Assembly (NCBI GenBank): GCA_951813565.1
Contig: OX638351.1
Coordinates: 4,992,001-5,056,000, forward strand
DNA: 64,000 nt
Source of the DNA: an uncultured Poribacteria bacterium
GTDB lineage: Bacteria > Poribacteria > WGA-4E > WGA-3G
Direction: 5' to 3'
The stretch's first letter is position 1, and each line of letters opens with the position of its first letter. Made by a program: the position numbers and the translations under genes. The notes under the pieces are model-generated. The model was not told where the DNA came from and searched no databases. It saw nothing but the letters and a program-made list of their open reading frames with translations. Shown here piece by piece: positions 8,466 to 27,954 of this stretch.

Positions 8466-9106
8466 GGGTGTGTAAATATTTGGTTACATAGGTTCAATTT
8501 GCAATGATTACGCGGCGTTTTCCACTGTAGAGCGGGGTCCCGGGGAATGCCATAAGGCATTCATACCCGGTGAATAACTAAATGTTATTCATACCGTTGA
8601 TTTCTTGATTTGGTGCCCCATAGCCGTCAATTTAAGGATATACCCTCTTGTGGGAGCGAATCAACGCAGCATGCGCGTATGGCATGCTGCCAAATCAACG
8701 CCAAATGCGACGAGTGCCATACGCGCGCTCGGCGTTGATTCTGCTTTTGGCATTTGTCCAAATCAACGCAGCATGCGCGTGTGGCATGCTGCCAAATCAA
8801 CGCCAAATGCGCTTTTTGGCATTTGGCGGGTTTTCAACCCCGATAAATACATATAAATCGGGCTTATAAAGCCCTCCCACAAGAGGTAATACCAAATTAC
8901 CCAAAATCGTAGGGGCGGGTCTCTGTGCCCGCCCGTGTTCTCAGCAGTGAAAACAATACAAAACTCGTTAATTTGGTATAATCTGGTAATTGTGTGCTTA
9001 AATTGACGCCTATGGGCGGGGTCCCGGGGAATGCCTTTTGGCATTCCCCGGAGACCCGCCCCTACAATAGGAGTTGTGCGGATTTCTACAAAAACTTTAC
9101 ACACCC
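8466..9106. mobile_element. Non-autonomous MITE (641 bp) with 11-bp TIR and 9-bp target-site duplication
   Basis: Ends GGGTGTGTAAA / TTTACACACCC; direct repeat AAGTAGGTA at 8457-8465 and 9107-9115; no transposase inside. Confidence 0.85.
8619..9014. repeat. Inner inverted-repeat-bounded element (GTCAATTTAAG family)
   Basis: CATAGCCGTCAATTTAAG ... CTTAAATTGACGCCTATG (17/18 inverted match). 8625-8844 is near-identical to 62868-63088. Confidence 0.8.
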
Positions 9107-9176
9107 AAGTAGGTATGCCACCACTTGTTTCATTACAAACGAACTTTGAGAAGGTTTAAAAAAAATAGACTTAAAA

Positions 9177-9214
9177 AATAAAAACGGCGAACGAGAATAT
9201 TACTCCATTCGCCG
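9177..9214 (-). terminator. Probable intrinsic terminator of the 9267-10097 gene
   Basis: CGGCGAA...TTCGCCG stem followed by a T-run on the minus strand. Confidence 0.6.
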
Positions 9215-9266
9215 CTCAGGTGTTTCAAAGGCTGTGCATTACAGTTGTTGTATTAATTGCGAACAA

Positions 9267-10097
9267 CTATTTACGTTTTATATCTGCCCAGATAGTAGTT
9301 AACTTTGCTGCAGGCTCAACAGGTAGAACGCGGTCAACTTCTTTGAAGAATTCGGCTTTACTGTTGGCTTTATCTGGGTAGATTTTAACAGTATCGTGTG
9401 TAGCATCGTCAAAATGGAGGTTCATATACGCACTACCGCCACCTTCTGTCACTCTATAAAGAAGAACATTTGCTCCTTTTTTAAAGGACACCTCAACGTT
9501 AAAATGAACCTTTTGTGCACCACCTGTCCAGGTAGGATGGTTGTACCATTTCTCACCGTTAATCCATATCTGTGCATAGTTATCGTGCGCGGGAGACATG
9601 ACAGATTTCATTGCTTTAGGCGCGTCAATTACGATGATACCGTAGGTGTCAATACTGTCTGCGGGTCCCCCTCTGTTCATATTGTTTCCATCTGCAGGAT
9701 TCAATTCAAAAACAGTCCATTCTCGGGTGCCGCCGTGTGCATTATCCCAATTAATTTCTGTTATTTTGTTTTCTGTCTTCAGCAAACCATTAATTGTAGA
9801 GAGTTCCTCTTGCGTTAGTTTGCCGTCGGTTCCCATCTCAATTAGTTCATTGCTATGATTCGGTTCGTTACCGTTGTTTGTATAGTTGCCATCTGGCCCA
9901 TACCATTTGCGTATCCACGTGTTATATCCTGAATGGTCTTCGTCTACTGCATTAGGCTGAGTAGCAAAGAGTTCATTATCTTTCAAAGGACCATCCTTGA
10001 GGTTAGGTTCGCCTATTGCAAGAGCGAGATTTGCCATATTGCAGACAAAACCTAAACTTAGCGTGATTGTTAGGAAAAAAAGGTAAAATCTTTTCAT
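9267..10097 (-). CDS. Secreted hypothetical protein with C-terminal VEPxxKLxxxW motif
   Basis: Signal peptide, RBS AGGAG, C-terminus LPVEPAAKLTTIWADIKRK shared with the LamG proteins in this window. Confidence 0.75.
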   Translation of the reverse strand: MKRFYLFFLTITLSLGFVCNMANLALAIGEPNLKDGPLKDNELFATQPNAVDEDHSGYNTWIRKWYGPDGNYTNNGNEPNHSNELIEMGTDGKLTQEELSTINGLLKTENKITEINWDNAHGGTREWTVFELNPADGNNMNRGGPADSIDTYGIIVIDAPKAMKSVMSPAHDNYAQIWINGEKWYNHPTWTGGAQKVHFNVEVSFKKGANVLLYRVTEGGGSAYMNLHFDDATHDTVKIYPDKANSKAEFFKEVDRVLPVEPAAKLTTIWADIKRK

Positions 10098-10212: not shown

Positions 10213-12030
10213 TTAAGTTGGATACGTATCTAATGCATTATGCCACTTTGTAAGCTGCGCGACGCGCTGTGTAGAATCTGTTGGAATTTCAAGAGGTCTT
10301 CCACGCGTGTCAATAACGAGTCCTACCACCCCACCCATCGCTTCTGTTTCGACTGACGTTCCATGCCCCGCCCCAAGGTCAAATCGTCGAGATGGTTGAA
10401 GTTTCAACGATGCTTTCTCATCTAATCCGAGCGGATAGAGTCGTAATTCGCCAAACGGTATTTCATCTGCGACGGTCGGTTTGTCTGGATAATGGATTTC
10501 AATGGAGAGGCACGCATCACCTGCTTTTCCAACACCAACAGGCGCAATACAAGTCCCCAAGTGAATTAGACAATCCCGTTCAAAAACTTGGGTTGCTGCC
10601 TCGGCGTTAACTTGTGCCAAGACTCCGAGTTGGGGCATCATAAAGATACTATCTACTGCAAGATGTGTCAGTCCTTCGGGTTGAAATGCATCAATCATCA
10701 TCAGCATTGATTGCTGGCGGCGCGGTGCGTGCGATAGAACACCCCCGCTGCCGACTAACATATCTAAAGAGAGCATGTTGACAAGCGTTTGCCCGCTTTC
10801 TGCTTGGTCGAATGCCTCGGAGATTGTACGTTGTTGTTGCACCCCTCGCAATTCTACCGCTAATTGCTTGTGCTGTTCAAAAGCCAATCTGAGCGCTTCA
10901 CGCGCAATTGCTTGTTCCAGAACTAATTCTTGTAAGGTTTGCGGGATTGTCGTTGGACGAATCATCTTGTTTTTGACACGATTCCGAAGATCACCTACCT
11001 CAATATCAAAAGGCACCCATCGTAAGACGTTGTTTATACCGGCTTCGGCAAGCACGTTAGAAACGCTATAACTCATGCCGAGGTTAGCACTGACGGTTCG
11101 GTTGAAAACCGCTTCTGCATCGTGGTTTTTAAAGACAGAAAATACATCTGTCGTCGCGCCGCCAATGTCAACACCGATTACCTGAATATCCTGTTGCGAT
11201 GAAACCGTTTGGATAATTTCACCGACTGCACCTGGCGTTGGCATGATTGGGGCATCTGTCCAGTCTATGAGTTTTTTATATCCAGGGGCATGTGCCATCA
11301 CGTGTTCAAGAAATTGGTCCTGAATCTTGTGACGTGTTGGCATTAAGTTTTCACGTTCTAAGACGGGACGGAGATTGTCTACTATCTCCAGAGACATCAC
11401 ATCGTCCAAACATTCTCGAATCAGTTCACGAGCGTCTTTGTTACCAGCATAAATAAGTGGCAGTTCATAAGCAATACCGAGACGTGGTTGTGGACGCGCT
11501 GCTGCGATAATCTCTGCCAATTCAACTACGTGTGAGGTCGTACCACCATCAACACCGCCAGAGAGAAGGAACATATCGGGACGAAGATGTCTAATCCGCT
11601 CTATTTTTTCATGTGGTAGCCGTTTGTCATTAGATGCAATGACATCCATGACAATAGCCCCAGCACCAAGTGCTGCACGTTCAGCGCTTTCCCCAGTCAT
11701 ATTACGTACAACACCTGCTACCATCATTTGCAATCCACCACCTGCACTACTTGTTGAAATATAGATGTCAACACCCTCTTCTCCGTTTTGTGGTTTGATG
11801 ATTACACCGTTGTCAAGGAGTTTGCGTCCAGCAAGTTCCTCAACTTCTGTTACTGCATTGATTACGCCTGCTGTTACGTCTTCTACGGGTGCTTCAACAG
11901 TTGTCGGTGCTTCGCCGCGTACGATGAGCTGATACTCGTCACCGCGTTTTTCAATAAGGATTGCTTTGGTGGTTGTGCTGCCACAATCTGTAGCAAGAAT
12001 GGAGCGGAGTTCGCCCCCCGATTCATTCAT
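10213..12030 (-). CDS. Glutamate mutase L (GlmL/MutL) family actin-like ATPase
   Basis: ATDCGSTTTK, STSSAGGGL, LSGGVDGG, MPTPGAV, VDIGGATTDVFS, GSGGVLSH. Confidence 0.8.
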   Translation of the reverse strand: MNESGGELRSILATDCGSTTTKAILIEKRGDEYQLIVRGEAPTTVEAPVEDVTAGVINAVTEVEELAGRKLLDNGVIIKPQNGEEGVDIYISTSSAGGGLQMMVAGVVRNMTGESAERAALGAGAIVMDVIASNDKRLPHEKIERIRHLRPDMFLLSGGVDGGTTSHVVELAEIIAAARPQPRLGIAYELPLIYAGNKDARELIRECLDDVMSLEIVDNLRPVLERENLMPTRHKIQDQFLEHVMAHAPGYKKLIDWTDAPIMPTPGAVGEIIQTVSSQQDIQVIGVDIGGATTDVFSVFKNHDAEAVFNRTVSANLGMSYSVSNVLAEAGINNVLRWVPFDIEVGDLRNRVKNKMIRPTTIPQTLQELVLEQAIAREALRLAFEQHKQLAVELRGVQQQRTISEAFDQAESGQTLVNMLSLDMLVGSGGVLSHAPRRQQSMLMMIDAFQPEGLTHLAVDSIFMMPQLGVLAQVNAEAATQVFERDCLIHLGTCIAPVGVGKAGDACLSIEIHYPDKPTVADEIPFGELRLYPLGLDEKASLKLQPSRRFDLGAGHGTSVETEAMGGVVGLVIDTRGRPLEIPTDSTQRVAQLTKWHNALDTYPT

Positions 12031-12229
12031 ATAGTTCGTCTCCTATTCCATTTTACTGACAAAATTAATTGCGTTCTTTTCTCAATCTTCTAAAGTTTGA
12101 ATGTCCCGGAAAGGCGTTTGTCTAAATCTTCAACTGTTAATGCCGCGAACGCAGATACGTTATAACATAAAAGCCTACGATCATAAAAACCAAACTTAAC
12201 CTTTTCATAACGTTCTCTTCATATTGACT

Positions 12230-13021
12230 TCAATATCCCAATTGTCGTAAATATTCACGGTTAACGGTCACCCGTTCTTCATCCGTGCGGTCTTCAACCA
12301 TACCTGGACAAGCGGTAATCCATCGGTCATAGTCGAGTTCTTCCAAAGTGGACATAATTCTGGGAAAGTCCATCGCGTCTCCACTGCCGACATCAACCCA
12401 ATCCACATTATAATTGCTACCATCTCCACCAGTGTAGCTTGAATAATCTTGAAGATGGACGTAGATAAGGACATCACGATAACGACGGATAGATTCAATC
12501 GGATCAAATCCCCAGAGTGCGGAATGTGATACATCAATGCACAGTTTACACTTGCGGAGTAGACTCATATATTTTGCCCAATCTTCTATGGAATCTACCG
12601 TTGTATTGGTATGGATATGATAACAGATATCTAATCCGTATCGTGCTGCGTATTCTGCCCATTCTTCGGAAACATCAGCAAGCTTGGTGAGATCAGCGTT
12701 GTTTACTGGTCGGTCATCTGGTTTTCCTGCGCCCATGAACATGAAACAATCCGCTCCAACCTCTGCTGCGAAGTCAATTCTTCGCTTATTAAGTTCCATC
12801 TGTTCAAAATTTTTGTCAATCGGCAACCCACGTGCTGTGACTGCAGCGATAGGCATGTCAACATTTTCACACATCCGCCGAATACGTCGCGGTGTGCCTG
12901 CCCAGTCTAAAGATTGCCGCATCTCCCAACCATCCCAACCGGCATCTTTAAGTTGCGTCAACAGTTTCTCAAAATCTGGTTGTTGCCATCGTAACGTACT
13001 ATATCCAAATTTGAAACCCAT
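12230..13021 (-). CDS. Sugar phosphate isomerase/epimerase (xylose-isomerase-like TIM barrel)
   Basis: GWDGWE, CYHIH, LCIDVSH, YVHLQD, VGSGD.MDF. Confidence 0.8.
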   Translation of the reverse strand: MGFKFGYSTLRWQQPDFEKLLTQLKDAGWDGWEMRQSLDWAGTPRRIRRMCENVDMPIAAVTARGLPIDKNFEQMELNKRRIDFAAEVGADCFMFMGAGKPDDRPVNNADLTKLADVSEEWAEYAARYGLDICYHIHTNTTVDSIEDWAKYMSLLRKCKLCIDVSHSALWGFDPIESIRRYRDVLIYVHLQDYSSYTGGDGSNYNVDWVDVGSGDAMDFPRIMSTLEELDYDRWITACPGMVEDRTDEERVTVNREYLRQLGY

Positions 13022-15299: not shown

Positions 15300-15355
15300 G
15301 CTATTTAGAGATTGTGGGCGGGTTTCAATGTCCGTCCACGCTAATTATATCTAAA

Positions 15356-17773
15356 ATGACAACCGAAGCCGAAGCACGTCAAATCATAGATAGCATGCTG
15401 GAAGAGTCTGGATGGCAGATTCAAAATTATGCTGAACGTGCAACAGATGCTTCTCTTGGTGTTGCTGTCCGTGAATATCCGTTAAGGTTTAATCAGAGAG
15501 CAGATTACCTTCTCTTTATCGGTGGCGTGGCAGTTGGCGTTATAGAAGCCAAATCAGAAGGAACAACACTTAGTGGAGCCCTCCAACAAGCAGAACGGTA
15601 TCGAGCAAATTTGCCAAATGATTTGCCCAACCGCACCAGATTTTTCTATTCTTATGCGTCAACAGGGATTGAGACATACTTTCGTGATTTTCGAGACCCG
15701 GATTCACGTTCTCGACAAGTCTTTATATTTCATACACCTCAAGCACTTTTTAATGCTTTCAATCAACCTCAAACGTTGCGAGAGAGACTCAAAACAGGGA
15801 TGCTGCCATTAAAAAAAGACAACTTGAGAGTTTGTCAATTTGAGGCGATAAGGCAGCTTGAGAGATCTTTGGCAGAAGCACGTCAGCGTGCTTTAATTCA
15901 GATGGCAACAGGCAGCGGAAAAACTTATGTCGCTGTCAGCAGTGTATACCGACTCATCAAATTTGCTAACGTCAAACGGGTTATTTTTCTGGTAGACCGT
16001 AACAATCTCGGTAGACAAGCTCTGCGTGAGTTTCAAAATTACACGACTCCCGATGATGGCAGGAAATTTACTGAACTCTACAACGTTCAACACCTTTCCA
16101 GCAATGTTATTGACGAAACAAGCTCGGTTTGTATTACCACTATCCAACGTCTTTACGCAATGTTGACAGGTGAACCCGACTATGAATCGGACGATGAGGA
16201 AAGTTCCGATTTTGAACAGGAAACTGAAGATTCACCTCCACAAGAAGTTGTCTATAATCCGAACATTCCTATTGATACGTTTGACCTTATCATCGTTGAT
16301 GAATGTCACCGCTCTATCTACGGTAAGTGGCGGCACGTATTAGAATACTTTGACGCTTTCATTCTCGGTCTCACTGCTACGCCATATAACCAAACGCTCA
16401 ATTTTTTCAATCAGAATCTTGTTTATGAATACCGTCACGAACAGGCTATTCAAGACGATGTAAATGTCGGTTATTATGTCTATCGGATTAAGACTGAAAT
16501 TACAGAAAGTGGTAGCACAGTTGCGGAGGGGAGTTATGTTGCAAGACGGGATAGGGTTAGTCGAAGACTTACCTGGGAGGAGTTGGATGAAGATGAAGAA
16601 TACACAGGAAATCAGTTAGACCGGGAGGTTGTGGCAGAAGACCAGATTCGGACAGTTATTCAGACTTTCAAGGATAAACTCAGGACAGAACTCTTTCCGA
16701 GTAGGACGATTGTTCCCAAAACACTTATCTTTGCAAAAGACGACTCGCATGCCGAGGATATTGTCAAAATTGTTCGGGAGGTATTTGCCAAAGGCGATGA
16801 TTTCTGCCAAAAGATTACCTACCAGAGCGATAGACCGGAAGACCTTATCAGAAGATTCCGCACAGACCCGATTTTCCGAATCGCTGTGAGCGTTGATATG
16901 ATTTCTACTGGCACCGATATTAAACCGCTTGAGTGTTTAGTCTTTATGCGTTCTGTCCGTTCAAGCGGGTATTTTGAGCAGATGAAGGGGCGCGGTATGC
17001 GTACTATTAAACCTGAAGATTTGCGATCTGTCACAGGTGATGCGACTGCAAAAACGCACTTCATTATTGTTGATGCTGTCGGTGTGTGTGAATCCATCAA
17101 AACTGATTCCCAGTCACGTCCAGGTGAGCCATCTTCTAATGGATCAAACGGACCACCAGAAAGAAACCCCGACCAACTCATGGATGATGTAAGCATAGAC
17201 CGTGTTATTGAAACCGGGTTTGAGCCTGAAAGTTTTGCACAAGCATCTACAGTGATCCACGACTTCAAGCGGTTTATTAATGAACACATAGCTGAATTGC
17301 CAGCGTTACAAATTTTGTGTGAACGTCCAGAAGCACAAGGCACACTGACTGAAAACAACTTAAAAGAGCTGGAAGAAGCATTGCAACAGCATTCCAGCAG
17401 TCTCAGTCGTGAGTCATTATGGATGGCTTATAAAAGACGGTCACCAGAGAACGTTCATGGAACCACAAAACGACGGACAGACCTTATATCACTGGTGCGT
17501 TTTGCCATGGGGTATACTCGTATTTTAGAACCGTTTAGTGCAATCGTCACCCGACATTTTGGAGAATGGTTAGAGGGTAAAGATTTCACACCAGAACAAG
17601 TCAACTGGCTTGAATGGATTCAGGAATACATTGCCACATCACTCGGTTTTCGAATAACTGATTTTGAGTACACACCTTTTGCACAGCGTGGCGGTGTAGC
17701 AAGAGCCATGCAACTCTTTGGTGATGAGTTGGAGGATATGCTAAAAGATCTTACAGAGAAATTGGTTTCTTAA
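15356..17773 (+). CDS. hsdR: Type I restriction enzyme R subunit
   Basis: Nuclease motif ADY...VIEAK, QMATGSGKT, LVDRNNL, DECHRS, GLTATP, QMKGRGMR, EcoEI_R_C-like C-terminus. Confidence 0.92.
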   Translation: MTTEAEARQIIDSMLEESGWQIQNYAERATDASLGVAVREYPLRFNQRADYLLFIGGVAVGVIEAKSEGTTLSGALQQAERYRANLPNDLPNRTRFFYSYASTGIETYFRDFRDPDSRSRQVFIFHTPQALFNAFNQPQTLRERLKTGMLPLKKDNLRVCQFEAIRQLERSLAEARQRALIQMATGSGKTYVAVSSVYRLIKFANVKRVIFLVDRNNLGRQALREFQNYTTPDDGRKFTELYNVQHLSSNVIDETSSVCITTIQRLYAMLTGEPDYESDDEESSDFEQETEDSPPQEVVYNPNIPIDTFDLIIVDECHRSIYGKWRHVLEYFDAFILGLTATPYNQTLNFFNQNLVYEYRHEQAIQDDVNVGYYVYRIKTEITESGSTVAEGSYVARRDRVSRRLTWEELDEDEEYTGNQLDREVVAEDQIRTVIQTFKDKLRTELFPSRTIVPKTLIFAKDDSHAEDIVKIVREVFAKGDDFCQKITYQSDRPEDLIRRFRTDPIFRIAVSVDMISTGTDIKPLECLVFMRSVRSSGYFEQMKGRGMRTIKPEDLRSVTGDATAKTHFIIVDAVGVCESIKTDSQSRPGEPSSNGSNGPPERNPDQLMDDVSIDRVIETGFEPESFAQASTVIHDFKRFINEHIAELPALQILCERPEAQGTLTENNLKELEEALQQHSSSLSRESLWMAYKRRSPENVHGTTKRRTDLISLVRFAMGYTRILEPFSAIVTRHFGEWLEGKDFTPEQVNWLEWIQEYIATSLGFRITDFEYTPFAQRGGVARAMQLFGDELEDMLKDLTEKLVS

Positions 17774-17822
17774 TTCTGCTTTTTAATAGGCACCTCTGGG
17801 CGCGATTGCTTGTCTAAAACGC

Positions 17823-17851
17823 TTGAATTCGCATACAGTTTGTGCTAAAAT
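17823..17851 (+). promoter_or_regulatory. Internal sigma70-type promoter upstream of the Argonaute fusion and hsdS
   Basis: TTGAAT-17 nt-TAAAAT with an extended -10 TG, about 60 nt before the ATG at 17913. Confidence 0.6.
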
Positions 17852-17912
17852 AAAAACTGTGCGGTGTCTGTTTTATCACAATTTTGAAAACACGTCAGAG
17901 AGGTATCTGAAA

Positions 17913-20900
17913 ATGCCAACACCAACACCAAAAGAGGTTTTTGATAATCCTTTACAATATCTTAATTTCCTACAATCCGACAAATTTGAAGGGCAATATT
18001 TCGAGCGGAATGAGGTCCGGCTTGAGAAAAACCAGATTAATGTGTTGAAAGATAGCATTAAGCCTTGTCTATCTGCATTCGCAAATACAAACAAAGAGGG
18101 AGGATTAGTTGTCCTGGGTATTGCTAACGACGGTACTATCAAAGGGATTCAGCACGTTGATGAACAGAAACTTAACGAAATATTGCAAGTTAGAGAATCT
18201 TTAAAAAACCACGTGACGGATCCAAAACATGTCAGTCTGCAAGATCCTAATAAGAACCAATTATATCTTTTATATACACATGAGACACCAAATGCAATTT
18301 GTGAAACAACAGGAGTTTTTCCAAAAGCTTGGAAAAGAGTTGGACCTCAGAATCGTCCTATGACTGAACAAGAACGGGATCAGTTAAAACGGAACAAAAA
18401 AATAGTTGATTTTGAGAACACCTATTGCTGTCCGCACGATCCTAATGAACTTGACGAAGGAGTGGTTGAAGAATTTAAGAAGGCTTTTCTTGAAGAGAGA
18501 GGTGCCCAGTACGGTCATAGCACCGAAGAAGTTCTATACCAAGCAGGTGCACTCATTAAAACGGAAGAAAATGGAAAATATGTGATTAACAATGCTGGTT
18601 ATCTATTTTTTTCCTCAAACCCTCGCAAGCGTTTTGGAAGCGCATTCGTAAGGTTACTACGTTATGATGTCCGCGCTGAAGAGTTAAGAAACCGTGGCGG
18701 AATGACTTTAGATAAAGATTTTGACGGTCCTCTTCCAAACATTATTCGTGGCCTTCGGAGCTTTTTAAAAGATTCCGCACTTTTTCGGATTTTGTCAAAA
18801 CGGAATCCTGATGGTGGATTCACTGATGAACCCGAATTTCCTTTCATAGCAGTTGATGAAGCACTCGTTAACGCCATTGTACATAGAGAATATGCTGTTA
18901 CTACACCAATTTTCTGTATTGTTTATAGAGATAAATTGGAAGTTAGAAATCCAGGAGACATACCACAGTCTGTTCCTAAGAAATTTAGTCTTGATGAACA
19001 AAGCTTAGACCCTGTGCCTCGGAATCCGAAAATTGTTGAGTGGATGCGTATCATGAAAGATGAGAGAGGTTCCATTTTTGTTCATGGATTGAGTGAAGGT
19101 ACTAGACGAATGAAGGAAGAGATGGAAAATTTGGGATTACCGGCTCCACACTATCATACAGATCAATACACAACCGTCACACTCTACAGTAAATTTGATG
19201 AACGCTTGGAAAAGTATACTCTAAAAACGGTCACTGAAACACAAGAATATGCTAATCTTTTTCCAATTGAACAGTCAAGAGAAAGAATGTCACGAAGCGA
19301 ATTTATAGAAGTTCGTGGAAATATACTCACAGCGATTAAAGACGCGCTCTTAAACCACGGATGGTTTATAGACCGTTTTTCATTTGGTCGCATCGTTGCC
19401 CATCGACAAGGTACATCCTTGTCCCTATCTCCTCAAGTTAAAGCTGTTGTACAAATATATCCAGCGTATGAATTACAAATTAGACAGTACGCTGAAGATC
19501 TCTATCTATGTGTTGATTACAAAGCTGAGTTGAAAAATATTCTGAAAGTAGGCTCTTTGCTTGATTACTTTACTGTTGATGATTTAGTTGGTAAACATGC
19601 TGTGGCAAAATACTCTGGACAATGGGAACGCGGAGAAATCTTAGAAATCGACTCGGAAACTACTAAATTAGCATTGTCTGATTTAGACACGGAAGTGAAT
19701 ATTCCAAATAATGATGTTATTCCATCCATTGGGAAAACTGCAATTAAAAAGATTTTGACAAAGAAAAACATAGCTCACGATCTTGATCAAAAAATTAAGG
19801 AACACGCTTTAGTGTCGCAGAGGAATGCTGCTAAAACCCGCGCTGAAAAAACTATCAGGATCGTTCAACATCTTGCCGATGAAGTGTTCCCTATTACAGT
19901 CAACAACTTAACACTTAAGTTGTCTAAAATCCCAGCTTCTCTAAAAACACCTCTATCTGGAGGTTCCTCGCAAGATGTTAAGCCTCTCACTGTGTTTCAT
20001 GAATCCGAGGAACCTTCAGTTCAATTCTATAATGACAAGGTTGATGCCAACATATTAGAAGGATTAACAAAATATAGTTCTTACGATGCAGGTATAAAAG
20101 ATATTGAGTTAATCCCTATTTGTACTCCGGATCTACGTGGGGGGATGCGGCAGCTAATTGAGAGACTTAAACATGGAAAATACAAATATCGCGGTACTGA
20201 ATGGACTTTTAAGACAAAGCTAACTTATCCTAATGTCAACCCAGCACCTATAGAAGAATTTCAAAGTGAATGTGTTCGATTATTAGAAGAGAATCCTAAT
20301 TGGATAGGAAACAAAGATTTGAATCGGCTTTTCCTTGTGTATGTTCCAGAAGACAGGTTCCCAATCACCGATCTCAATTCTCCATACTACACAATTAAGG
20401 AATTTCTGTTATCTAAAGGAATTCCTGTCCAAATGGTGGACACGCCTATTCTTAAGAATCCTGATTGGAAGGATTTCAATCTTGCTTTGAACATCACTGC
20501 GAAATGCGGTGTCGTCCCTTGGGTTTTACCAGGCGCATTACCAGATGCTGATTTCTTTGTTGGTTTGTCATATACCCAACATCCTGATAGGAAAATAGAC
20601 AGACACATGGCGTTTGCTAATGTGTTCAGTAATTTTGGACGCTGGAAATTCTACCAAGGAAATGCTAAACCGTTTAATTATGATGAGAGACACGAATACT
20701 ACAAAGTACTCGTCCGATCAACGTTGGAAAGGCTTGACCTTCGCGAATCTCCATCAATACATTTTCACTACTCAGCGAAGTTTTCTGCGGAAGACATATC
20801 TGCAATTTTGGAAGCTGCAAAATTAGTTCGCCCGAATGGTAGATATACATTTGTATGGATAAATAGTTCACATATCGTTCGGTTTTACGATCCATCTCCA

Positions 20901-21254
20901 CAAACAGATGGAAGTTTACAACGTGGTAAATACGTGATTGGCTGGCCTAAACAATTCTATTTATCAACTACTGGCTATAATACTTACCATAAGTCACTTG
21001 GCACTCCCCATCCTCTTGAAGTTAATGTATGGACTGAACCTTACGATCCCTCAAATCCACCGGATCTGAGAGTTGTTGCCAAGCAATTAATCTCTCTGAC
21101 AAAGTTGAATTGGGCATCAACCCGTTCATTTTGTGGCACGCCTATCACCATAAAATACGCACGTGACATTGCCCGTTTTGCATCGGCGTTTATTGAGCGT
21201 AGCGGAAAGTTTGAACTACATGAAGTCTTGGAGAAAACCCCATGGTTCATCTAA
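17913..21254 (+). CDS. Schlafen/AlbA_2 - HATPase_c_4 (GHKL) - long prokaryotic Argonaute fusion, PIWI catalytically inactive
   Basis: N-terminal EGQYFER...SAFANTNKEGGLVVLGIANDG (AlbA_2). Middle EALVNAIVHREY...EVRNPG...RNPKI...EGTRRM (HATPase_c_4). Ago part: EEPSVQF, GLTKYSSYD, MID YYTIK...GIPVQMV...NITAKCGVVPW, PIWI FVGLSY, LTKLNW, PITIKYAR, C-terminal PWFI. RBS GAGAGG before ATG. Confidence 0.88.
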   Translation: MPTPTPKEVFDNPLQYLNFLQSDKFEGQYFERNEVRLEKNQINVLKDSIKPCLSAFANTNKEGGLVVLGIANDGTIKGIQHVDEQKLNEILQVRESLKNHVTDPKHVSLQDPNKNQLYLLYTHETPNAICETTGVFPKAWKRVGPQNRPMTEQERDQLKRNKKIVDFENTYCCPHDPNELDEGVVEEFKKAFLEERGAQYGHSTEEVLYQAGALIKTEENGKYVINNAGYLFFSSNPRKRFGSAFVRLLRYDVRAEELRNRGGMTLDKDFDGPLPNIIRGLRSFLKDSALFRILSKRNPDGGFTDEPEFPFIAVDEALVNAIVHREYAVTTPIFCIVYRDKLEVRNPGDIPQSVPKKFSLDEQSLDPVPRNPKIVEWMRIMKDERGSIFVHGLSEGTRRMKEEMENLGLPAPHYHTDQYTTVTLYSKFDERLEKYTLKTVTETQEYANLFPIEQSRERMSRSEFIEVRGNILTAIKDALLNHGWFIDRFSFGRIVAHRQGTSLSLSPQVKAVVQIYPAYELQIRQYAEDLYLCVDYKAELKNILKVGSLLDYFTVDDLVGKHAVAKYSGQWERGEILEIDSETTKLALSDLDTEVNIPNNDVIPSIGKTAIKKILTKKNIAHDLDQKIKEHALVSQRNAAKTRAEKTIRIVQHLADEVFPITVNNLTLKLSKIPASLKTPLSGGSSQDVKPLTVFHESEEPSVQFYNDKVDANILEGLTKYSSYDAGIKDIELIPICTPDLRGGMRQLIERLKHGKYKYRGTEWTFKTKLTYPNVNPAPIEEFQSECVRLLEENPNWIGNKDLNRLFLVYVPEDRFPITDLNSPYYTIKEFLLSKGIPVQMVDTPILKNPDWKDFNLALNITAKCGVVPWVLPGALPDADFFVGLSYTQHPDRKIDRHMAFANVFSNFGRWKFYQGNAKPFNYDERHEYYKVLVRSTLERLDLRESPSIHFHYSAKFSAEDISAILEAAKLVRPNGRYTFVWINSSHIVRFYDPSPQTDGSLQRGKYVIGWPKQFYLSTTGYNTYHKSLGTPHPLEVNVWTEPYDPSNPPDLRVVAKQLISLTKLNWASTRSFCGTPITIKYARDIARFASAFIERSGKFELHEVLEKTPWFI

Positions 21255-22681
21255 CTCCAATTTCTGGTGATTTGCCAAAAGGGTGGGTGTGGACAACATT
21301 AGAAGAAATTGGTGAAATCATATTAGGGCAATCCCCTCCGTCTTCTACCTACAATACAGATGGAGACGGACTCCCTTTTTATCAAGGTAAACTTGAATTC
21401 GGGAAACTCTATCCTGCACCTCGAAAATGGTGTACCGCTCCGAAGAAAATTGCTGAAAAAGGGGACGTTTTCATTTCTATTCGCGCGCCTGTAGGACCTA
21501 CAAATATTTGCCCCGAAAAATCTGCTGTGGGAAGAGGACTCGCAGCAATTCGCGGGTTAGGCGGAATTGAGTCGTTTTTCATTCTTTATTTAATGCATGC
21601 CTATGCAAATAAGATTGCAAGCAGAGGAACGGGGACAACTTTTGATGCAATTACGGGAAACCAACTTAAGACATTTGAAATCCCACTTCCACCACTGACA
21701 GAACAACGCCGCATCGTAGCCAAGTTAGAGATACTATTTACACATTTAGACGCAGCAGTTGAAAACCTCAAAAAAGCACAAGTGCAGTTGCAGCGGTATC
21801 GTCAATCAGTTCTCAAAGCTGCTTTTGAAGGGGAGTTGACGAGGGAGTGGCGAGAAGGGTATTCGGGTGAATTAGAACCGATGTCGGTTTCAGAAGTTTC
21901 TGAGATGGACAATTTACCTGAGCTGCCTGATGGTTGGGTGTGGACGAAGGTTAAGGACATTTCAGAATTTATTCGCGGTGTGTCCTATAAAAAGAATCAA
22001 TCATCTAAAACCCCAATAGATGATTATGTTCCTATATTGCGGGCGAACAATATCAATACACAATTGAACTATGAAGACCTTGTTTATGTTCAGCGAGAAA
22101 AGGTTAAAGATGAACAATTTGTAAAGATTTATGATATTATCATCGCGATGTCGAGTGGTAGTAAACACCTCGTAGGTAAAGCAGCGCAAGCTTATCAGGA
22201 TTTTGAAGGGGGTTTTGGCACTTTTTGTGGGTTGGTCAGAGTTTCGGAAGAAGTAAATAAAAAATTCATTGGTTTATTTTTCCAAAGTCCTGTTTATAGA
22301 AATGAAATATCTCGTCTCTCTATTGGAATAAACATCAATAACCTTCGGAGAGAAAACATAGAGACAATGCTTATACCGCTTCCACCGCTTGCCGAACAGG
22401 AACAGATTGTCTCTGAACTTGAGCGGCACCTTTCAGTCGCTGATGCGGCAGAGGCAACCCTTGATGCCGCACTGAAGCGCGCGGAACGTTTGCGGCAGTC
22501 TATCCTCAAACATGCGTTTTCTGGTAAACTTGTTCCGCAAGACCCGAACGATGAACCGGCAAGCGTGTTGCTTGAGAAAATCAGAGATGAGAAAGATCAG
22601 CAACAACCAAAGCGAAAAAAGACTACAACAAAATCGAAAAACACATCTTCGGCACAGCAATTGTCCCTTCCACTTGACTAA
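21242..22681 (+). CDS. hsdS: Type I restriction-modification specificity subunit
   Basis: Two TRDs each preceded by LPxGWVWT and followed by IPLPPLxEQ; RQSxLKxAFxG; QDPNDEPASVLLEKI. Confidence 0.93.
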   Translation: MVHLTPISGDLPKGWVWTTLEEIGEIILGQSPPSSTYNTDGDGLPFYQGKLEFGKLYPAPRKWCTAPKKIAEKGDVFISIRAPVGPTNICPEKSAVGRGLAAIRGLGGIESFFILYLMHAYANKIASRGTGTTFDAITGNQLKTFEIPLPPLTEQRRIVAKLEILFTHLDAAVENLKKAQVQLQRYRQSVLKAAFEGELTREWREGYSGELEPMSVSEVSEMDNLPELPDGWVWTKVKDISEFIRGVSYKKNQSSKTPIDDYVPILRANNINTQLNYEDLVYVQREKVKDEQFVKIYDIIIAMSSGSKHLVGKAAQAYQDFEGGFGTFCGLVRVSEEVNKKFIGLFFQSPVYRNEISRLSIGININNLRRENIETMLIPLPPLAEQEQIVSELERHLSVADAAEATLDAALKRAERLRQSILKHAFSGKLVPQDPNDEPASVLLEKIRDEKDQQQPKRKKTTTKSKNTSSAQQLSLPLD

Positions 22682-22800
22682 ACTAAAGTTGAAACTTCGT
22701 TTTGTTTTTAATGCAGATTTATGGTAAAATATCAATGTAAAGCAACTGTACAATCTGTTCATTAAAAGTTTTAATTTAAGTTTTTAAGGAAATATTAGAG

Positions 22801-23085
22801 ATGACACTTAAGATTACAGACTGCACGGATAGAGATGAAAAAACGCGGGAGACCGATCCGCTTCTCGCATTAGCAGGTACGCTTAAATGGAATAATATAA
22901 GTGGCCCCAACGCCGTATTGATACCGGAAATACTCGTGATTAAAGGCGCACACGAAGATCACCCGGATCCGCTCATCGCCTTGCTGGGAACGTTGGAATG
23001 TGATGTCACAGACATCGGCGAACGTCACGATGATTATATCAGAGACGCACTTTTAGCAGAATTATGGGGAAATGAAGATGAATGA
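22801..23085 (+). CDS. Small hypothetical protein with internal repeat, antitoxin-like
   Basis: DPLLALAGTL / DPLIALLGTL repeat; DIGERHDDYI tail; putative promoter TTGTTT-17-TAAAAT at 22702-22730. Confidence 0.55.
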   Translation: MTLKITDCTDRDEKTRETDPLLALAGTLKWNNISGPNAVLIPEILVIKGAHEDHPDPLIALLGTLECDVTDIGERHDDYIRDALLAELWGNEDE

Positions 23086-23119
23086 GGAACTTACCTTAAA
23101 CTTGCGTAGGTGAAATAAT

Positions 23120-23533
23120 ATGAAAACTGAAGAAAAAGAACATAATCTCCCTCTACCGCCAGCAGATAAAACACTATTTCGCAAACAAGTGCAGCGCGAA
23201 TTAGACGAAATTCGACAAGAAGCTGAGGAGGCTTATACCTTGGATAACGAGATTGATCCTGTGCCGGATTCGGCTTACAATGACACGCTTGTTTTGTTAA
23301 AGTTCCTTTGTAATTACAATCTGCCCATGCCAGATTTTAGTTGGGCAGAAGATGGTAGCCTTAGTGTTGGGTGGTACCCAGATAATGGCATGGTAACAAT
23401 GGGAATATATGGGGACAATCTTGTCATCTATAATGCATTTTTTGAAGAAAAACGTCAATTTGAAGGAATCTGTGAACTGTCAGATACCGCGGTGTTGTCA
23501 GGTTTTCTCACAACGTTGGCAAATATCCTCTAA
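23120..23533 (+). CDS. Acidic hypothetical protein (module gene A, copy 1)
   Basis: Paralog of 26521-26919 and 27120-27539 (PxxAYN, PMP, EDGxxxxxW, GICxLS). Confidence 0.75.
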   Translation: MKTEEKEHNLPLPPADKTLFRKQVQRELDEIRQEAEEAYTLDNEIDPVPDSAYNDTLVLLKFLCNYNLPMPDFSWAEDGSLSVGWYPDNGMVTMGIYGDNLVIYNAFFEEKRQFEGICELSDTAVLSGFLTTLANIL

Positions 23534-23547
23534 TAAGGATTGTTGTT

Positions 23548-23967
23548 ATGAATGTTTCACCGGGTGAGACACTCACTCGTTTTATTCGTTATAACAGTCA
23601 TTTTTCCGTTGTAACTAACAGAGTTAAACCTGACGCTTTTCTTCCACACAGAAAGCGTATTGATGTATCCGTGTTTCGCATTTCCGAACTCAATGACAGT
23701 GAAAAACTCTCAGAAAACGAGATATGGCAAATTGGGCGGGAATATGTTCAAACAGAAGAAAGACTGATAAAGGCAAGGGCTGATCTTTTGGCTGCCGTTG
23801 TTTATCAGAATAATCTTGAAGTTGTTCCAGATGAGCCGCCTCAAAGGCACGCGAACATAACGCCTTTTCCGATAGAGAAAAGTCCTACAGACAGGAAAGC
23901 ACGTAGATCCATCGCAACGAAACTTGCTAACGCAAGTAAATTAGCTGTTCAACCAGAAAAGATATGA
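23548..23967 (+). CDS. Hypothetical protein (module gene B, copy 1), possible ART-like fold
   Basis: Paralog of 27550-27954; conserved RFI, AFxP, SVF, EIWxIGR, KARADL, HANIT. Confidence 0.75.
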   Translation: MNVSPGETLTRFIRYNSHFSVVTNRVKPDAFLPHRKRIDVSVFRISELNDSEKLSENEIWQIGREYVQTEERLIKARADLLAAVVYQNNLEVVPDEPPQRHANITPFPIEKSPTDRKARRSIATKLANASKLAVQPEKI

Positions 23968-23996
23968 TTTCAGTACGATCAAATTGAGATACACAC

Positions 23997-25463
23997 ATGT
24001 CCAACGAATCCACAACAATCGTTCAAAAACTATGGAATTTCTGCAATGTGCTCCGAGATGATGGGGTCAGTTACGGAGATTACGTGGAGCAACTCACGTA
24101 TCTGCTTTTTCTCAAACTCGCTGATGAACAGCGCAACCTACCTACTAACACATCAACTCAAATCCCTGCTGGTTTGGATTGGGAAAGTTTACTCAAAGAG
24201 AGTGGTGCTGCGTTAGAAGAGCAGTATGTTAAAACCCTTCGTGAATTGAGTAATGAGAAAGGGTTGCTTGGTGTTATTTTTAGAAAATCGCAAAACCGCA
24301 TTCAGACACCCGCGCACCTCCAACGACTTATCAAGCTTATTGATGCCGAAAACTGGAGCGGAATGGCAGCCGATGTCAAAGGCACAATTTACGAGGGACT
24401 TTTACAGAAAAACGCTGAAGACACCAAAAGCGGTGCAGGGCAGTACTTCACACCTCGTCCACTCATCAAAGCGATAGTAGCTGTAATGCAACCTAAACCG
24501 ATGAAAACGATCTGCGATCCTGCATGCGGCACAGGCGGTTTTTTCCTCGCTGCTTATGAGTATATATCCGAAACATATCGCACAACATTAACTCGTGAAC
24601 AGAAGAAGTTCCTCAGATTTGATACTTTCGCCGGAACAGACATCGTTGATAACGTAGTCCGTCTCTGTGTTATGAATCTATATCTGCACGGTATTGATGG
24701 GGAGGAAAGTCCAATTACAACCAACGATAGTCTCGGCAAAGATCCGGGAGAACGTTACGATATGGTGCTGACCAATCCACCGTTTGGTAACAAGAGTAGT
24801 GTTACAATCACTACTGATGGCGAAAAACGTAGCAACGCATCCGTCACGTATGAACGCGATGATTTTTGGGCGACAACTTCAAATAAACAGTTTAACTTCC
24901 TACAGCACATTAAGACAATTTTGAAGGAAAATGGTCGCGCCGCTGTGGTACTACCTGATAACGTTCTCTTTGAACGTGGCGCGGGTGAAACAATTCGCAG
25001 GCAACTGCTAAAACTGTTTGATGTCCATACCTTGTTACGATTGCCTACTGGTATTTTCTACGCGCAAGGTGTAAAGGCAAACGTTCTCTTTTTCGACAAA
25101 CGTCCGGCACGTGAGGAACCGTGGACACAAAAACTTTGGATATACGATCTCCGTACAAATAAACGTTTTACGCTTAAGACGAATCCCTTACGCGATGCCG
25201 ACCTACAGGATTTTATTACTGCCTATAATCCAAAGAACCGTCACGAACGGGTTGAAACTGAACGTTTTCACGCCTTCACTTACGAGGAACTTACCAAGCG
25301 GGAACATGTTAACCTTGATATTTTCTGGTTGAAAGAGGATTCACTTGAAGATATAGCAGACCTTCCCACGCCTGATGTATTAGCGGGGGAAATCACACAG
25401 AATTTAGAGACTGCTTTGGGATTGTTTCAGAATATTCAGACAGAATTAGGTGACAGTGACTAA
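23997..25463 (+). CDS. hsdM: Type I restriction-modification N6-adenine methyltransferase subunit
   Basis: KLWNFCNVLRDDG, GQYFTPR, DPACGTGGF (motif I), TNPPF (motif IV), LRLPTGIFY. Confidence 0.95.
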   Translation: MSNESTTIVQKLWNFCNVLRDDGVSYGDYVEQLTYLLFLKLADEQRNLPTNTSTQIPAGLDWESLLKESGAALEEQYVKTLRELSNEKGLLGVIFRKSQNRIQTPAHLQRLIKLIDAENWSGMAADVKGTIYEGLLQKNAEDTKSGAGQYFTPRPLIKAIVAVMQPKPMKTICDPACGTGGFFLAAYEYISETYRTTLTREQKKFLRFDTFAGTDIVDNVVRLCVMNLYLHGIDGEESPITTNDSLGKDPGERYDMVLTNPPFGNKSSVTITTDGEKRSNASVTYERDDFWATTSNKQFNFLQHIKTILKENGRAAVVLPDNVLFERGAGETIRRQLLKLFDVHTLLRLPTGIFYAQGVKANVLFFDKRPAREEPWTQKLWIYDLRTNKRFTLKTNPLRDADLQDFITAYNPKNRHERVETERFHAFTYEELTKREHVNLDIFWLKEDSLEDIADLPTPDVLAGEITQNLETALGLFQNIQTELGDSD

Positions 25464-25613: not shown

Positions 25614-26432
25614 ATGCGCAATCAACTTACACTGACACTCTTCACCCTTATCATTGCTGTCCTTTTCTGTTCTATTGCAGTAGCAAGTTTGCAAAATGGG
25701 TTAATTGTCTATTATCCATTTGATGAAGCAGATGGAAAAACAGCGTCTGATAAAAGCAAAAACAACAATGATGCGGAACTTATGGGTAACGCCGCTTGGG
25801 CACCTAAGGAAGGTAAAATTGGCGGTGCCATCAGATTTGATGGTGGTGATAGTTCTGCTGTAGACGAAAACGGTGCAGATTATATCAATGAACTTGAGGC
25901 TTTTACCATCTCTGTTTGGGTAAAATCTGATTCAGTTGGACACGACAGAGGTATTGTCTTTGCTATAGACCCCGATGGAGGCGATAATGTTTTCGGTTTA
26001 CGCTACGATGCCGCAAGTTGGTCCACAAAGGGTGGGACAAATCTTCTCAAAGGCGCGATTACGACAACGGGCGGCGGTCAAGCGTATGAGGGTAAAAGCG
26101 ATGTGCAAACAACTGAGTGGCAATACCTCGCGTTTACTTGGAAAAGTGGTGAACAACTTGCCCTTTATATTGATGGTGAACTTGATGATAATCCTACACA
26201 CAATGATGGTGGAAAAGAGGGTAAAATTTCTGGTGCCACCAAATTAATCGTAGGTAAAGGTGCTAAAGATAATAATGGCACCTCATGGCCCGGTCTCATT
26301 GACGACTTTCGACTCTACGATAGAGTTTTAGAGGCGAGAGAGATTTCAGATTTAGCTTCAGGTGTCCTACCAGTTGAACCGGCTGGAAAGCTAGCAACGA
26401 CTTGGGCGAACTTTAAGCAAAAACGAAATTAA
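25614..26432 (+). CDS. Secreted LamG-like jellyroll domain protein
   Basis: Signal peptide; YYPFDE, FTISVWVK, LYIDGE, IDDFRLYDRVL; C-terminal VEPAGKLATTW. Confidence 0.88.
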   Translation: MRNQLTLTLFTLIIAVLFCSIAVASLQNGLIVYYPFDEADGKTASDKSKNNNDAELMGNAAWAPKEGKIGGAIRFDGGDSSAVDENGADYINELEAFTISVWVKSDSVGHDRGIVFAIDPDGGDNVFGLRYDAASWSTKGGTNLLKGAITTTGGGQAYEGKSDVQTTEWQYLAFTWKSGEQLALYIDGELDDNPTHNDGGKEGKISGATKLIVGKGAKDNNGTSWPGLIDDFRLYDRVLEAREISDLASGVLPVEPAGKLATTWANFKQKRN

Positions 26433-27119: not shown

Positions 27120-27539
27120 ATGGATACCTCACACTCACAAAAAGAACCTGATTTTGCTCGGTCCCCTGCTGACAAGATACTGTTTCTAAAACATGTCCAA
27201 AGCGAATTAGGCGAAATTCGTGAGGAAGTTGAAGAAACTTGTGCAGTGACTACCGACGTTATACCTGTACCGGAACAGGCTTATAATAATACATTATCTT
27301 TGATGGAACAGATGCCCGATGACATACCGATGCCAGACATGATGTGGTTGGAAGATGGTGGTATTGGATTAGAATGGAGGCCAGGAGAAGGTATCGCAAC
27401 AATAAGTCTATACGGTGACGGAAACGTTATTTACGGTATTTTTTTTAGTGATAAGTGTGAGACTAGTGGAATCTGTGCCTTGTCAAACTATGCACTTCTC
27501 CATGGATTTCTTACGACGTTAAGCCTACTCTTTCAATAA
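27120..27539 (+). CDS. Acidic hypothetical protein (module gene A, copy 2)
   Basis: PADKxLF..VQ.EL.EIR, PVPEQAYN, PMPD, EDGGIGLEW. Confidence 0.75.
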   Translation: MDTSHSQKEPDFARSPADKILFLKHVQSELGEIREEVEETCAVTTDVIPVPEQAYNNTLSLMEQMPDDIPMPDMMWLEDGGIGLEWRPGEGIATISLYGDGNVIYGIFFSDKCETSGICALSNYALLHGFLTTLSLLFQ

Positions 27540-27549
27540 AGGATACGGT

Positions 27550-27954
27550 ATGGATTTATCGAGAGGCGATATTCTTAGTCGCTTCATTTTTTCTAAAAGA
27601 CACTTTTCAATAGAAAATTCGACTGTCAAATATGGAGCATTTATTCCGCCTCCAAATAGTGCTGATTTATCTGTGTTTTCTGTTTCATCCCTTACTAACA
27701 GCGAAATATGGGAAATCGGACGTAAATATGTCCAAACGAATGAAAGAAAACTAAAGGCAAGAGCCGATCTTCCTGTTGAAAAAGTTTATGCTGTTAATCT
27801 AAAAGTTGTCCCAGATACTCAACCTCACGAACTACATGCCAATATCACATCTTTTCCATTAGACAAGAGGGAGCGTACTGATCTTGCAAGAAAACTTGCA
27901 GTCGTTAGTAGGTTGGAAATTATACCACCTGAAGATACTGATTCTGATCGTTAA
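27550..27954 (+). CDS. Hypothetical protein (module gene B, copy 2)
   Basis: Paralog of 23548-23967, in the same order behind gene A. Confidence 0.75.
   Translation: MDLSRGDILSRFIFSKRHFSIENSTVKYGAFIPPPNSADLSVFSVSSLTNSEIWEIGRKYVQTNERKLKARADLPVEKVYAVNLKVVPDTQPHELHANITSFPLDKRERTDLARKLAVVSRLEIIPPEDTDSDR

Follow-up and report, generated by a model that had tools for sequence, protein, structure and literature searches.

A Type I operon with a Schlafen-Argonaute gene

The DNA considered here, referred to below as the window, is a stretch of 64,000 nucleotides (4.99-5.06 Mb) of the single-contig 5.43-Mb genome of an uncultured sponge symbiont of the phylum Poribacteria (NCBI GenBank assembly GCA_951813565.1, contig OX638351.1). 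From 15314 to 25463 it carries a Type I restriction-modification (R-M) operon, and between the genes for the restriction subunit (hsdR) and the specificity subunit (hsdS) stands a gene that joins a Schlafen RNase domain, a GHKL ATPase and the core of a prokaryotic Argonaute (pAgo), a combination known as SLFN-pAgo. Open reading frame (ORF) calling places every gene of this locus on the + strand and, together with Pfam, gives the order hsdR, Schlafen-GHKL-pAgo fusion gene, hsdS, three small ORFs and hsdM; the same order on one strand had been proposed in a first-pass annotation made from the letters of the DNA, and it is borne out by the ORF calls, Pfam and PADLOC. The spacer between hsdR and the fusion gene is 139 nt long. 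The main features are as follows.

15314-17773, + strand: hsdR, 819 aa, EcoAI/EcoEI-like Type I restriction subunit
17823-17851, + strand: promoter-like site in the hsdR/pAgo spacer, TTGAAT, 17 nt, extended -10 element TG-n-TAAAAT (TGcTAAAAT)
17913-21254, + strand: SLFN-pAgo gene, 1113 aa, predicted Schlafen RNase, GHKL ATPase and long-B-type pAgo core in a single polypeptide
Upstream of the AlbA_2 domain, + strand: E26-x4-E31 of the fusion protein, from an alignment of 13 rows
18042-18365, + strand: Schlafen AlbA_2 domain, about aa 44-151 counted from ATG 17913 (residues 74-181 of the TTG-start translation)
S54-N58, + strand: SAFAN motif of the fusion protein, listed with E26-x4-E31 beside the AlbA_2 domain
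18912-19181, + strand: GHKL (HATPase_c_4) ATPase core, about aa 334-423, with the N-box residues E316/N320 just ahead
19377-21254, + strand: pAgo core, about aa 489-1113, MID-PIWI from about aa 696 (PADLOC pAgo_II and MID-PIWI models)
21242-22681, + strand: hsdS, 479 aa, specificity subunit with a GGAGA Shine-Dalgarno (SD) site, Methylase_S in two stretches, PADLOC Specificity_I
23997-25463, + strand: hsdM, 488 aa, N6_Mtase 231.8 bits, HsdM_N 49 bits
25452-25477, + strand: terminator-like hairpin at the end of hsdM, a consensus match only

The components of a Type I system are all present, namely HsdR, an HsdM with both N6_Mtase and HsdM_N, and an HsdS with two target-recognition domains. The hsdR frame is intact at 819 aa, as in its orthologs, and contains both the helicase/translocase and the nuclease regions: Pfam reports ResIII (130.9 bits), EcoEI_R_C (121.3), HSDR_N (42.8) and also SWI2_SNF2, and the NCBIfam EcoAI/FtnUII and PRK11448 equivalog matches fall under their curated cut-offs. 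In HsdS, the N-terminal residues M1...L11 P12 G14 W15 are invariant in 9/9 aligned rows. HsdM matches PADLOC MTase_I with 653.8 bits over profile positions 3-480 of 487. A PADLOC run, which had been suggested earlier as a check, matched these components of the locus: pAgo (PDLC02394), REase_I (hsdR), MTase_I and Specificity_I.

The SLFN-pAgo stop codon and the hsdS start overlap by exactly 13 nt (21242-21254), in agreement with the first-pass annotation, and this overlap, or an abutment of the two genes, is kept in the related loci L001-L004 and L007. Because of this overlap, hsdS is probably expressed from the SLFN-pAgo promoter and would probably lie on the same transcript as the SLFN-pAgo gene; the toxin-antitoxin (TA)-like genes and hsdM downstream may perhaps be on it as well, and the only terminator-like site found stands after hsdM. 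The promoter-like site that had also been pointed out is present in the spacer. Such sites are not in excess in the region (26, against 24.1 +/- 4.8 in shuffles), yet at this one the -10 block and the SD are conserved 5' of the Schlafen-ATPase or pAgo gene in 7/7 aligned Poribacterial loci. One of the seven is L005, a locus with no R-M genes and a different upstream gene, which suggests that the promoter travels with the cassette.

These defence genes occupy a variable island of 12.7 kb. Its left flank is a conserved xylose-isomerase-like gene that ends at 15299 and its right flank an NTP-transferase/ARMT1 gene that starts at 28042, with synteny across species on both sides. The host genome contains one SLFN-pAgo and two distant paralogs of its Schlafen-ATPase part (27% identity).

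The fusion protein and its published relatives

The ORF of the fusion gene opens at TTG 17823, and we take ATG 17913 as the real start since it is preceded by a GAGAGG Shine-Dalgarno-like site and the PADLOC profile alignment begins there. The protein matches the PADLOC pAgo model PDLC02394 with 1473.5 bits over positions 2-1121 of 1121, and further PADLOC pAgo models at aa 518-1143. Pfam finds SLFN_AlbA_2 (PF04326; 40.2 bits, E 5.7e-10, cut-off 25.3) and, 3' of this Schlafen domain, HATPase_c_4 (PF13749; 39.9 bits, cut-off 26). There are 555 homologs at E<=1e-10, and the nearest named relatives are cyanobacterial (46-48% identity). The nearest solved structure by sequence is that of RsAgo from Rhodobacter sphaeroides (6d95/5awh; E 7.6e-07, aa 808-1090), which like the window protein is a long-B pAgo; it is non-slicing and lacks the Schlafen and GHKL extension. 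The label 'HTH transcriptional regulator' carried by some homologs was rejected, as the Pfam scan of the fusion protein contains no HTH domain.

We aligned the window protein with 12 full-length representatives (29-48% identity; 13 rows). In the Schlafen part, E26 is near-invariant and position 31 is E or D in 13/13 rows; in the SAFAN motif, F56 is invariant and A57 and N58 are near-invariant. The triplet E395-G396-T397 of the ATPase is conserved, and the MID residues Y825, K829, Q840 and K864 are invariant. In the PIWI domain, S886 of the motif G-L-S-Y is near-invariant, and it is here that we take the first slicer Asp to stand in other Argonautes. A second alignment, of the Schlafen-ATPase region alone (28 chosen rows), includes proteins in which this region stands by itself or is fused to HsdS; none of the 28 rows departs from the ATPase and Schlafen motifs, whose invariant residues include GHKL E316, A317, N320, G348, E395 and G396. 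Judged by its sequence, the window gene is an intact, ordinary full-length member of the SLFN-pAgo family, and the conserved nuclease, ATPase and guide-pocket residues make the protein look functional.

This family has recently been described in a preprint (Kuzmenko et al., May 2026, bioRxiv 10.64898/2026.05.29.728809), which reports 78 SLFN-pAgos of 1,071-1,187 aa, a range that includes the 1113 aa of the window protein. They belong to the long-B clade, carry an N-terminal Schlafen domain and a GHKL ATPase, and are described there as lacking the PIWI catalytic tetrad. According to the same source, RzAgo of Runella zeae uses RNA guides and DNA targets: guides induce inactive filaments, and a target induces their disassembly, after which ATP-driven tetramers form, tRNA is cleaved and the infection is aborted. 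RzAgo alone protects F. johnsoniae from phage, and the mutants D32A and E314A lose this protection. The preprint reports no genetic partner conserved across the family, but the text on its Fig. 1f already describes a Poribacterial operon of SLFN-pAgo and R-M genes, together with two sister operons in which the Schlafen-ATPase, termed 'Schlatpase', is either alone or fused to a Type I specificity subunit. Before that, Ryazansky et al. 2018 (PMC6299218) had listed Schlafen-fused long-B pAgos and included HsdS among the pAgo-associated orthogroups.

The SLFN-pAgo family, its mechanism and its co-residence with R-M genes in Poribacteria are in consequence already known from the preprint, and the locus as it stands adds one well-annotated example to a defence family that was characterised in 2026. 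The earlier statement that no characterised example within a Type I locus was known holds for experiments, of which our literature searches found none on an R-M-embedded SLFN-pAgo, but not for the arrangement itself. RzAgo and the window protein share the SLFN AlbA_2 domain, the GHKL domain and the long-B core, which probably lacks slicer residues in the window protein too, and they fall in the same length class; the SAFAN motif, the acidic SLFN residues, the GHKL N-box Glu and the MID pocket also appear to be common to both. From motifs and numbering, E31, D73 and E316 of the window protein may correspond to D32, D72 and E314 of RzAgo. The two differ in setting, as RzAgo was tested alone and the window copy overlaps hsdS translationally inside a Type I operon.

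Inactive pAgos that act as guide-dependent sensors are also found in SPARTA, SPARSA and SPARDA, where oligomerisation of a short pAgo system switches on a toxic effector and leads to abortive infection. SLFN-pAgo resembles these systems in that an inactive pAgo sensor drives abortive infection. It differs in its parts, since the partner of a short pAgo is an APAZ-TIR, APAZ-SIR2 or nuclease protein, either separate or fused, and here a long-B core is combined with a Schlafen RNase and a GHKL ATPase. A prokaryotic Schlafen domain also serves as the tRNA-cleaving effector, under a separate sensor module, in CRISPR-associated Schlafen (Cash; Nat Commun 2026, PMC13462974); its sensor is not an Argonaute but the cA4-binding Csx15 of type III CRISPR signalling, and it has no GHKL domain.

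Linkage to Type I genes and the relation between the two systems

Our favoured account, to which we give a good but not overwhelming likelihood, is that the window carries an autonomous SLFN-pAgo abortive-infection system which is co-transcribed with a Type I R-M operon, the two forming layers of defence without mechanistic dependence on each other. The window protein would most likely work like RzAgo, from whose preprint this mechanism is taken: RNA-guided sensing of invader DNA would lead to ATP-driven tetramers, tRNA cleavage and abortive infection. The SLFN-pAgo gene would occupy the hsdR|hsdS junction of an EcoAI/EcoEI-like operon as an optional cassette with its own promoter. DNA restriction would then be the first layer and RNA-guided abortive infection the second; the two would share regulation and inheritance, and neither would need the other mechanistically. 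That they share an operon is suggested by the 13-nt overlap, the conserved promoter and the position of the terminator-like site after hsdM.

The case for autonomy comes from the distribution of the family. For a survey of genomic context in metagenomes, we considered the best 80 of 254 relatives, of which L018 was dropped as no called ORF covered the match. Clustering of the remaining 79 SLFN-pAgos at 90% identity gave 54 clusters, of which 52 are non-Poribacterial. Up to 3 ORFs per side were scanned with Pfam for 51 of these 52 clusters (193 ORFs), and HsdR, HsdM and HsdS proteins from three systems served as queries against every ORF of the surveyed loci. Type I genes were found near SLFN-pAgo in 3/52 non-Poribacterial clusters; none were detected nearby in the other 49, absences that are weaker than they sound since a flank of at least 3 kb on both sides was available in only 14 of the 52. 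The three cases differ in layout. In L084, the order is hsdM-hsdS-...-hsdR-SLFN-pAgo and the hsdR stop overlaps the pAgo start; in L034, a complete Type I system lies downstream of SLFN-pAgo, past an oppositely oriented RtcB gene; and in L022, an HSDR_N-like ORF is found upstream and hsdM remnants downstream. Other neighbours include Type ISP, BREX, MmeI-like, GmrSD, Hachiman and AbiE genes, TA pairs, reverse transcriptases, integrases and conjugation genes. Such a mixture is generic for defence islands and mobile elements and agrees with what the preprint reports.

In a tree of full-length SLFN-pAgos (53 rows, quick search, nine cluster representatives shorter than 1000 aa left out), the Type I-linked proteins occupy four separate places, and their sister branches are without Type I neighbours. 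Among the five plasmid-collection records with a match there is one full-length relative, the SLFN-pAgo of a Rubrobacter plasmid (49% identity), which lies among TA and transposase genes with no R-M genes. We base autonomy on this scatter of the linked cases and on the 49 clusters without a detected Type I neighbour, on the Rubrobacter copy and on the ortholog in genome G086 (locus L005), which keeps the promoter and lacks R-M, and on the 11 of the 30 best orthologous R-M operons of Poribacteria in which the site is empty. An R-M 'guard' is not a trait of the SLFN-pAgo family. The layered system proposed in the first-pass annotation is thus upheld in part: its sensor-effector half matches the experiments on RzAgo, but the guarding of R-M fails at the family level, where the enrichment of homologs in Type I loci that was to be expected comes to 3/52 scattered clusters, RzAgo protects alone in a heterologous host, and the L005 ortholog is intact without R-M.

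Some of the surveyed loci deserve a separate mention. In L034, the RtcB tRNA-ligase gene (8477-9649, - strand) is directly beside SLFN-pAgo, between it and the Type I operon, and a tRNA repair enzyme adjoining a tRNA-cutting defence gene is suggestive. The SLFN-pAgos of L060 and L084 are at least 90% identical, and beyond this gene the two loci share only the last 47 codons of the upstream hsdR (3642-3782 in L060) and differ further upstream, which suggests that recombination within the 3' end of hsdR is how the cassette moves. In L065, a gene for a 'predicted pPIWI-associating nuclease' (pP_pnuc_1; 11153-12343) lies directly downstream of SLFN-pAgo. In L087 (3759-7020), two Schlatpase-like genes, one with DUF4062 and HATPase_c_4 and the other with SLFN, HATPase_c_4 and Fic-like_C, stand upstream of SLFN-pAgo and a large N6_N4 methylase gene. 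Record H3 of the plasmid collection is a prophage-like Schlatpase relative and uninformative.

The picture within Poribacteria is of another kind. The reference-genome loci (n=11) come from Candidatus Poribacteria in ten cases and from an 'uncultured bacterium' in one, and we extended the comparison to 176 genomes of the phylum; these are kin, so that the following counts are not independent events. An hsdR ortholog is present in 79/176 genomes, and an SLFN-pAgo or a Schlatpase part in 57/176. Close full-length SLFN-pAgos (69-100% identity) occur in 8 genomes. Three of them stand directly after hsdR, three have a solo Schlatpase gene between hsdR and pAgo, one, in another family of the phylum, is separated from hsdR by about 2 kb, and the last is the G086/L005 ortholog, which is intact and at the same chromosomal spot with no R-M at all. 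A second SLFN-pAgo clade (44-51% identity) is found in 6 genomes (G142, G102, G073, G051, G054 and G097), none of which has it adjoining this EcoAI-like hsdR. In 43 genomes only the Schlatpase part is found, the pAgo core being lost: 23 of them have it on the same strand no more than 600 nt downstream of hsdR and a further 6 within 7 kb, and the other 14 either have it unlinked or are without an hsdR ortholog. In total, the close clade is linked to hsdR in 36/51 genomes (7/8 with the pAgo core and 29/43 without). Seen from the side of the R-M genes, the 30 best hsdR-ortholog loci have a Schlatpase or SLFN-pAgo starting directly downstream in 15 cases and after a 1.2-kb gap in one more, hsdS directly after hsdR in 11, and neither detected in 3.

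Six of the 29 linked genomes that have lost the pAgo core carry the Schlatpase joined to HsdS in one open frame of 920-1012 aa, beside intact hsdR and hsdM. Four of these were fetched (L127 in G155, L128 in G080, L129 in G105 and L130 in G101); each contains a complete HsdS in frame, and the fusion is the sole specificity gene of an otherwise intact Type I operon. The same Schlatpase::HsdS architecture is found in the protein databases (P0136, P0138 and P0173). As a separate observation, in L006 (11324-11374) Schlatpase and hsdS lie in the same frame and are parted by stop codons only.

According to a midpoint-rooted tree of the Schlatpase region, built from the 28 rows mentioned above without the solo Schlatpase of L009, all Poribacterial modules, whether pAgo-fused, solo or HsdS-fused, form one clade (100/99) that is nested among full-length SLFN-pAgos. 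The solo Schlatpases fall in at least four subclades, one of which groups with the window protein (99/98), and L008 retains a short remnant of the pAgo N-domain (11336-11780) between the Schlatpase stop and hsdS. On the nested tree position and this remnant, the most likely origin of the solo and HsdS-fused forms is that the pAgo core was deleted repeatedly, a direction that rests on parsimony and the midpoint root only. Pairwise NG86 dN/dS over 428-442 codons is 0.15-0.16 for pAgo-fused pairs, 0.13-0.15 for HsdS-fused and 0.11-0.14 for solo forms, values that indicate purifying selection on the Schlafen-ATPase module in each of its forms, none of which is decaying. About 80 related genomes together provide a natural series at a single junction, which is either empty or holds the Schlafen-ATPase alone, fused to HsdS, or with the Argonaute; this series, with its similar purifying selection on all forms, is the new contribution of the present analysis.

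Several of these figures weigh against full independence of the two systems: 7/8 close SLFN-pAgos lie within this R-M operon, 36/79 hsdR loci have a Schlafen-ATPase module within 7 kb downstream, and the HsdS fusions occur beside intact hsdR and hsdM. The Poribacterial tie to the R-M operon is much tighter than ordinary co-residence in a defence island, and such a tight association argues for some functional tie. The obvious precedent is PrrC of EcoprrI, which is latent when bound by the R-M enzyme and is triggered by a phage anti-restriction factor (PMC1484252), and whose gene is reported as always R-M linked (PMC3458546). In a Type Ic cluster, prrC encodes an NTPase-regulated tRNA-cutting enzyme within a Type I locus, adjoining hsdS, as the gene in the window is predicted to do. 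The two are unrelated in sequence and domains, an ABC-type NTPase with the PrrC nuclease in one and GHKL with Schlafen in the other, and the Pfam, PADLOC and NCBIfam scans of the fusion protein contain no ABC-type NTPase or PrrC nuclease family. The window protein, unlike PrrC, has its own nucleic-acid sensor. The obligatory Type I linkage of PrrC also has no counterpart in SLFN-pAgo, which is mostly unlinked outside Poribacteria (3/52 clusters) and is linked in 36/51 genomes of the close Poribacterial clade.

By analogy with PrrC, the Schlafen-GHKL tRNase of this lineage could physically belong to the Type I enzyme as an accessory, either docked on HsdS or fused to it, which we regard as unlikely; that the tRNase is controlled by whether the R-M complex is stalled or is inhibited by an anti-restriction protein, with the pAgo as an additional or alternative sensor, seems to us equally doubtful. 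This reading corresponds to the guarded restriction system of the first-pass annotation. The exact placing of the module at the hsdR|hsdS junction, the in-frame joining to complete HsdS, the retention of the module in R-M loci after loss of the pAgo core, and the equal dN/dS of fused, solo and pAgo-fused forms all speak for such a coupling, as do the L008 remnant and the nested solo forms, which suggest that the pAgo sensor was lost and the nuclease kept. The overlap of hsdR and SLFN-pAgo in L084 is an independent instance, and PrrC shows that a tRNase can be silenced by a linked Type I enzyme. Against it stand the 14/43 Schlatpase-only genomes and the 1/8 close SLFN-pAgo genome in which linkage is absent, the locus L011, where the module lies beside a decayed hsdS without hsdR or hsdM, and the roughly half of the orthologous R-M operons that are without the module. 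Moreover, all Poribacterial cases may descend vertically from one insertion, the HsdS fusion could be a mere by-product of deleting the pAgo core where the pAgo stop overlaps the hsdS start, and the preprint, as already said, reports no family-wide partner. A complex prediction for Schlatpase aa 1-460 with HsdS (score 0.00, mark 0.32) gave no answer and counts neither for nor against. On balance there is perhaps a minor chance that the Poribacterial Schlafen-GHKL tRNase is a working part of the Type I enzyme, gated by the restriction complex as a non-homologous analogue of PrrC-EcoprrI, the trigger perhaps being a complex blocked by an anti-restriction protein. If this were true, the window operon would be a two-sensor version in which Argonaute and R-M feed one effector, and R-M 'guarding' of the PrrC type would have evolved a second time from unrelated parts.

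It is considerably less probable that the two systems act in series, the ends or fragments made by the Type I enzyme raising guide production or exposing targets for the Argonaute. One may infer as much from their likely co-transcription and their common action on foreign DNA, but the guides of RzAgo are RNA and it is active in a host that lacks the R-M system of the window, and a linkage across the family is missing, as the metagenome clusters show. Finally, that the fusion gene regulates hsdS/hsdM expression and is no defence effector is scarcely credible: it heads the hsdS-hsdM transcription unit, and some homologs are labelled 'predicted HTH transcriptional regulator' or 'transcriptional regulator', but the nuclease, ATPase and guide-binding residues are conserved, defence has been demonstrated experimentally for the family with RzAgo, and R-M operons with an empty site exist. 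An autonomous SLFN-pAgo sharing an operon with the R-M genes is the reading that we retain.

Two entries of the protein databases show other combinations of the same parts. P0157 (1199 aa), in which an ADP-ribosylglycohydrolase domain is fused to a pAgo core 35% identical to that of the window protein, puts another effector or enzyme onto this Argonaute scaffold; in P0167 a Schlatpase is joined to leucine-rich repeats.

The small open reading frames and the rest of the island

Three small genes lie between hsdS and hsdM.

22801-23085, + strand: 94-aa ORF, no family match, antitoxin-like orphan
23120-23533, + strand: 137-aa ORF, immunity/chaperone-like partner of a two-gene module
23548-23967, + strand: 139-aa ORF, candidate ADP-ribosyltransferase-fold toxin

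None of the three has a match in Pfam (even at E<=1), PADLOC or NCBIfam; in Atlas they fall in unnamed clusters only, and Foldseek against the PDB gives nothing at E<=0.001. The 94-aa ORF contains two DPL[LI]AL..GTL repeats. Its homologs in L002 and L004 directly precede a PIN-domain gene that is absent in the window, so that here the ORF looks like an orphan antitoxin-like gene.

The AF2 model of the 137-aa protein (pLDDT 87.2) has 7zhm_C as a Foldseek match (prob 0.84, E 0.3), and VIA aligns it with the TriTu immunity protein (Z 6.7; 76 aligned, rmsd 2.3) and with the AvrPphF ORF1 chaperone (Z 4.3). For the model of the 139-aa protein (pLDDT 87.9), VIA lists KptA/Tpt1 (Z 6.9 and 6.5), Tse2 (6.0) and AvrPphF ORF2 (5.9) and, further, DarT, Scabin, TreX and RES, all with Z <8; by entry titles, NAD-using ADP-ribosyltransferase-fold proteins make up about 30 of the 50 rows. 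These fold matches are weak but coherent and amount to a lead, suggesting that the 137- and 139-aa ORFs may be an unnamed toxin-immunity pair. A paralogous copy of this module is found at 27120-27954, and related loci have 1-3 copies of it in the hsdS-hsdM interval.

Beyond hsdM, a LamG-domain gene whose product has a signal-peptide-like N-terminus occupies 25614-26432. It is 3' of hsdM in the window and 5' of hsdR in most related loci, a difference in position which indicates that the island has been rearranged.

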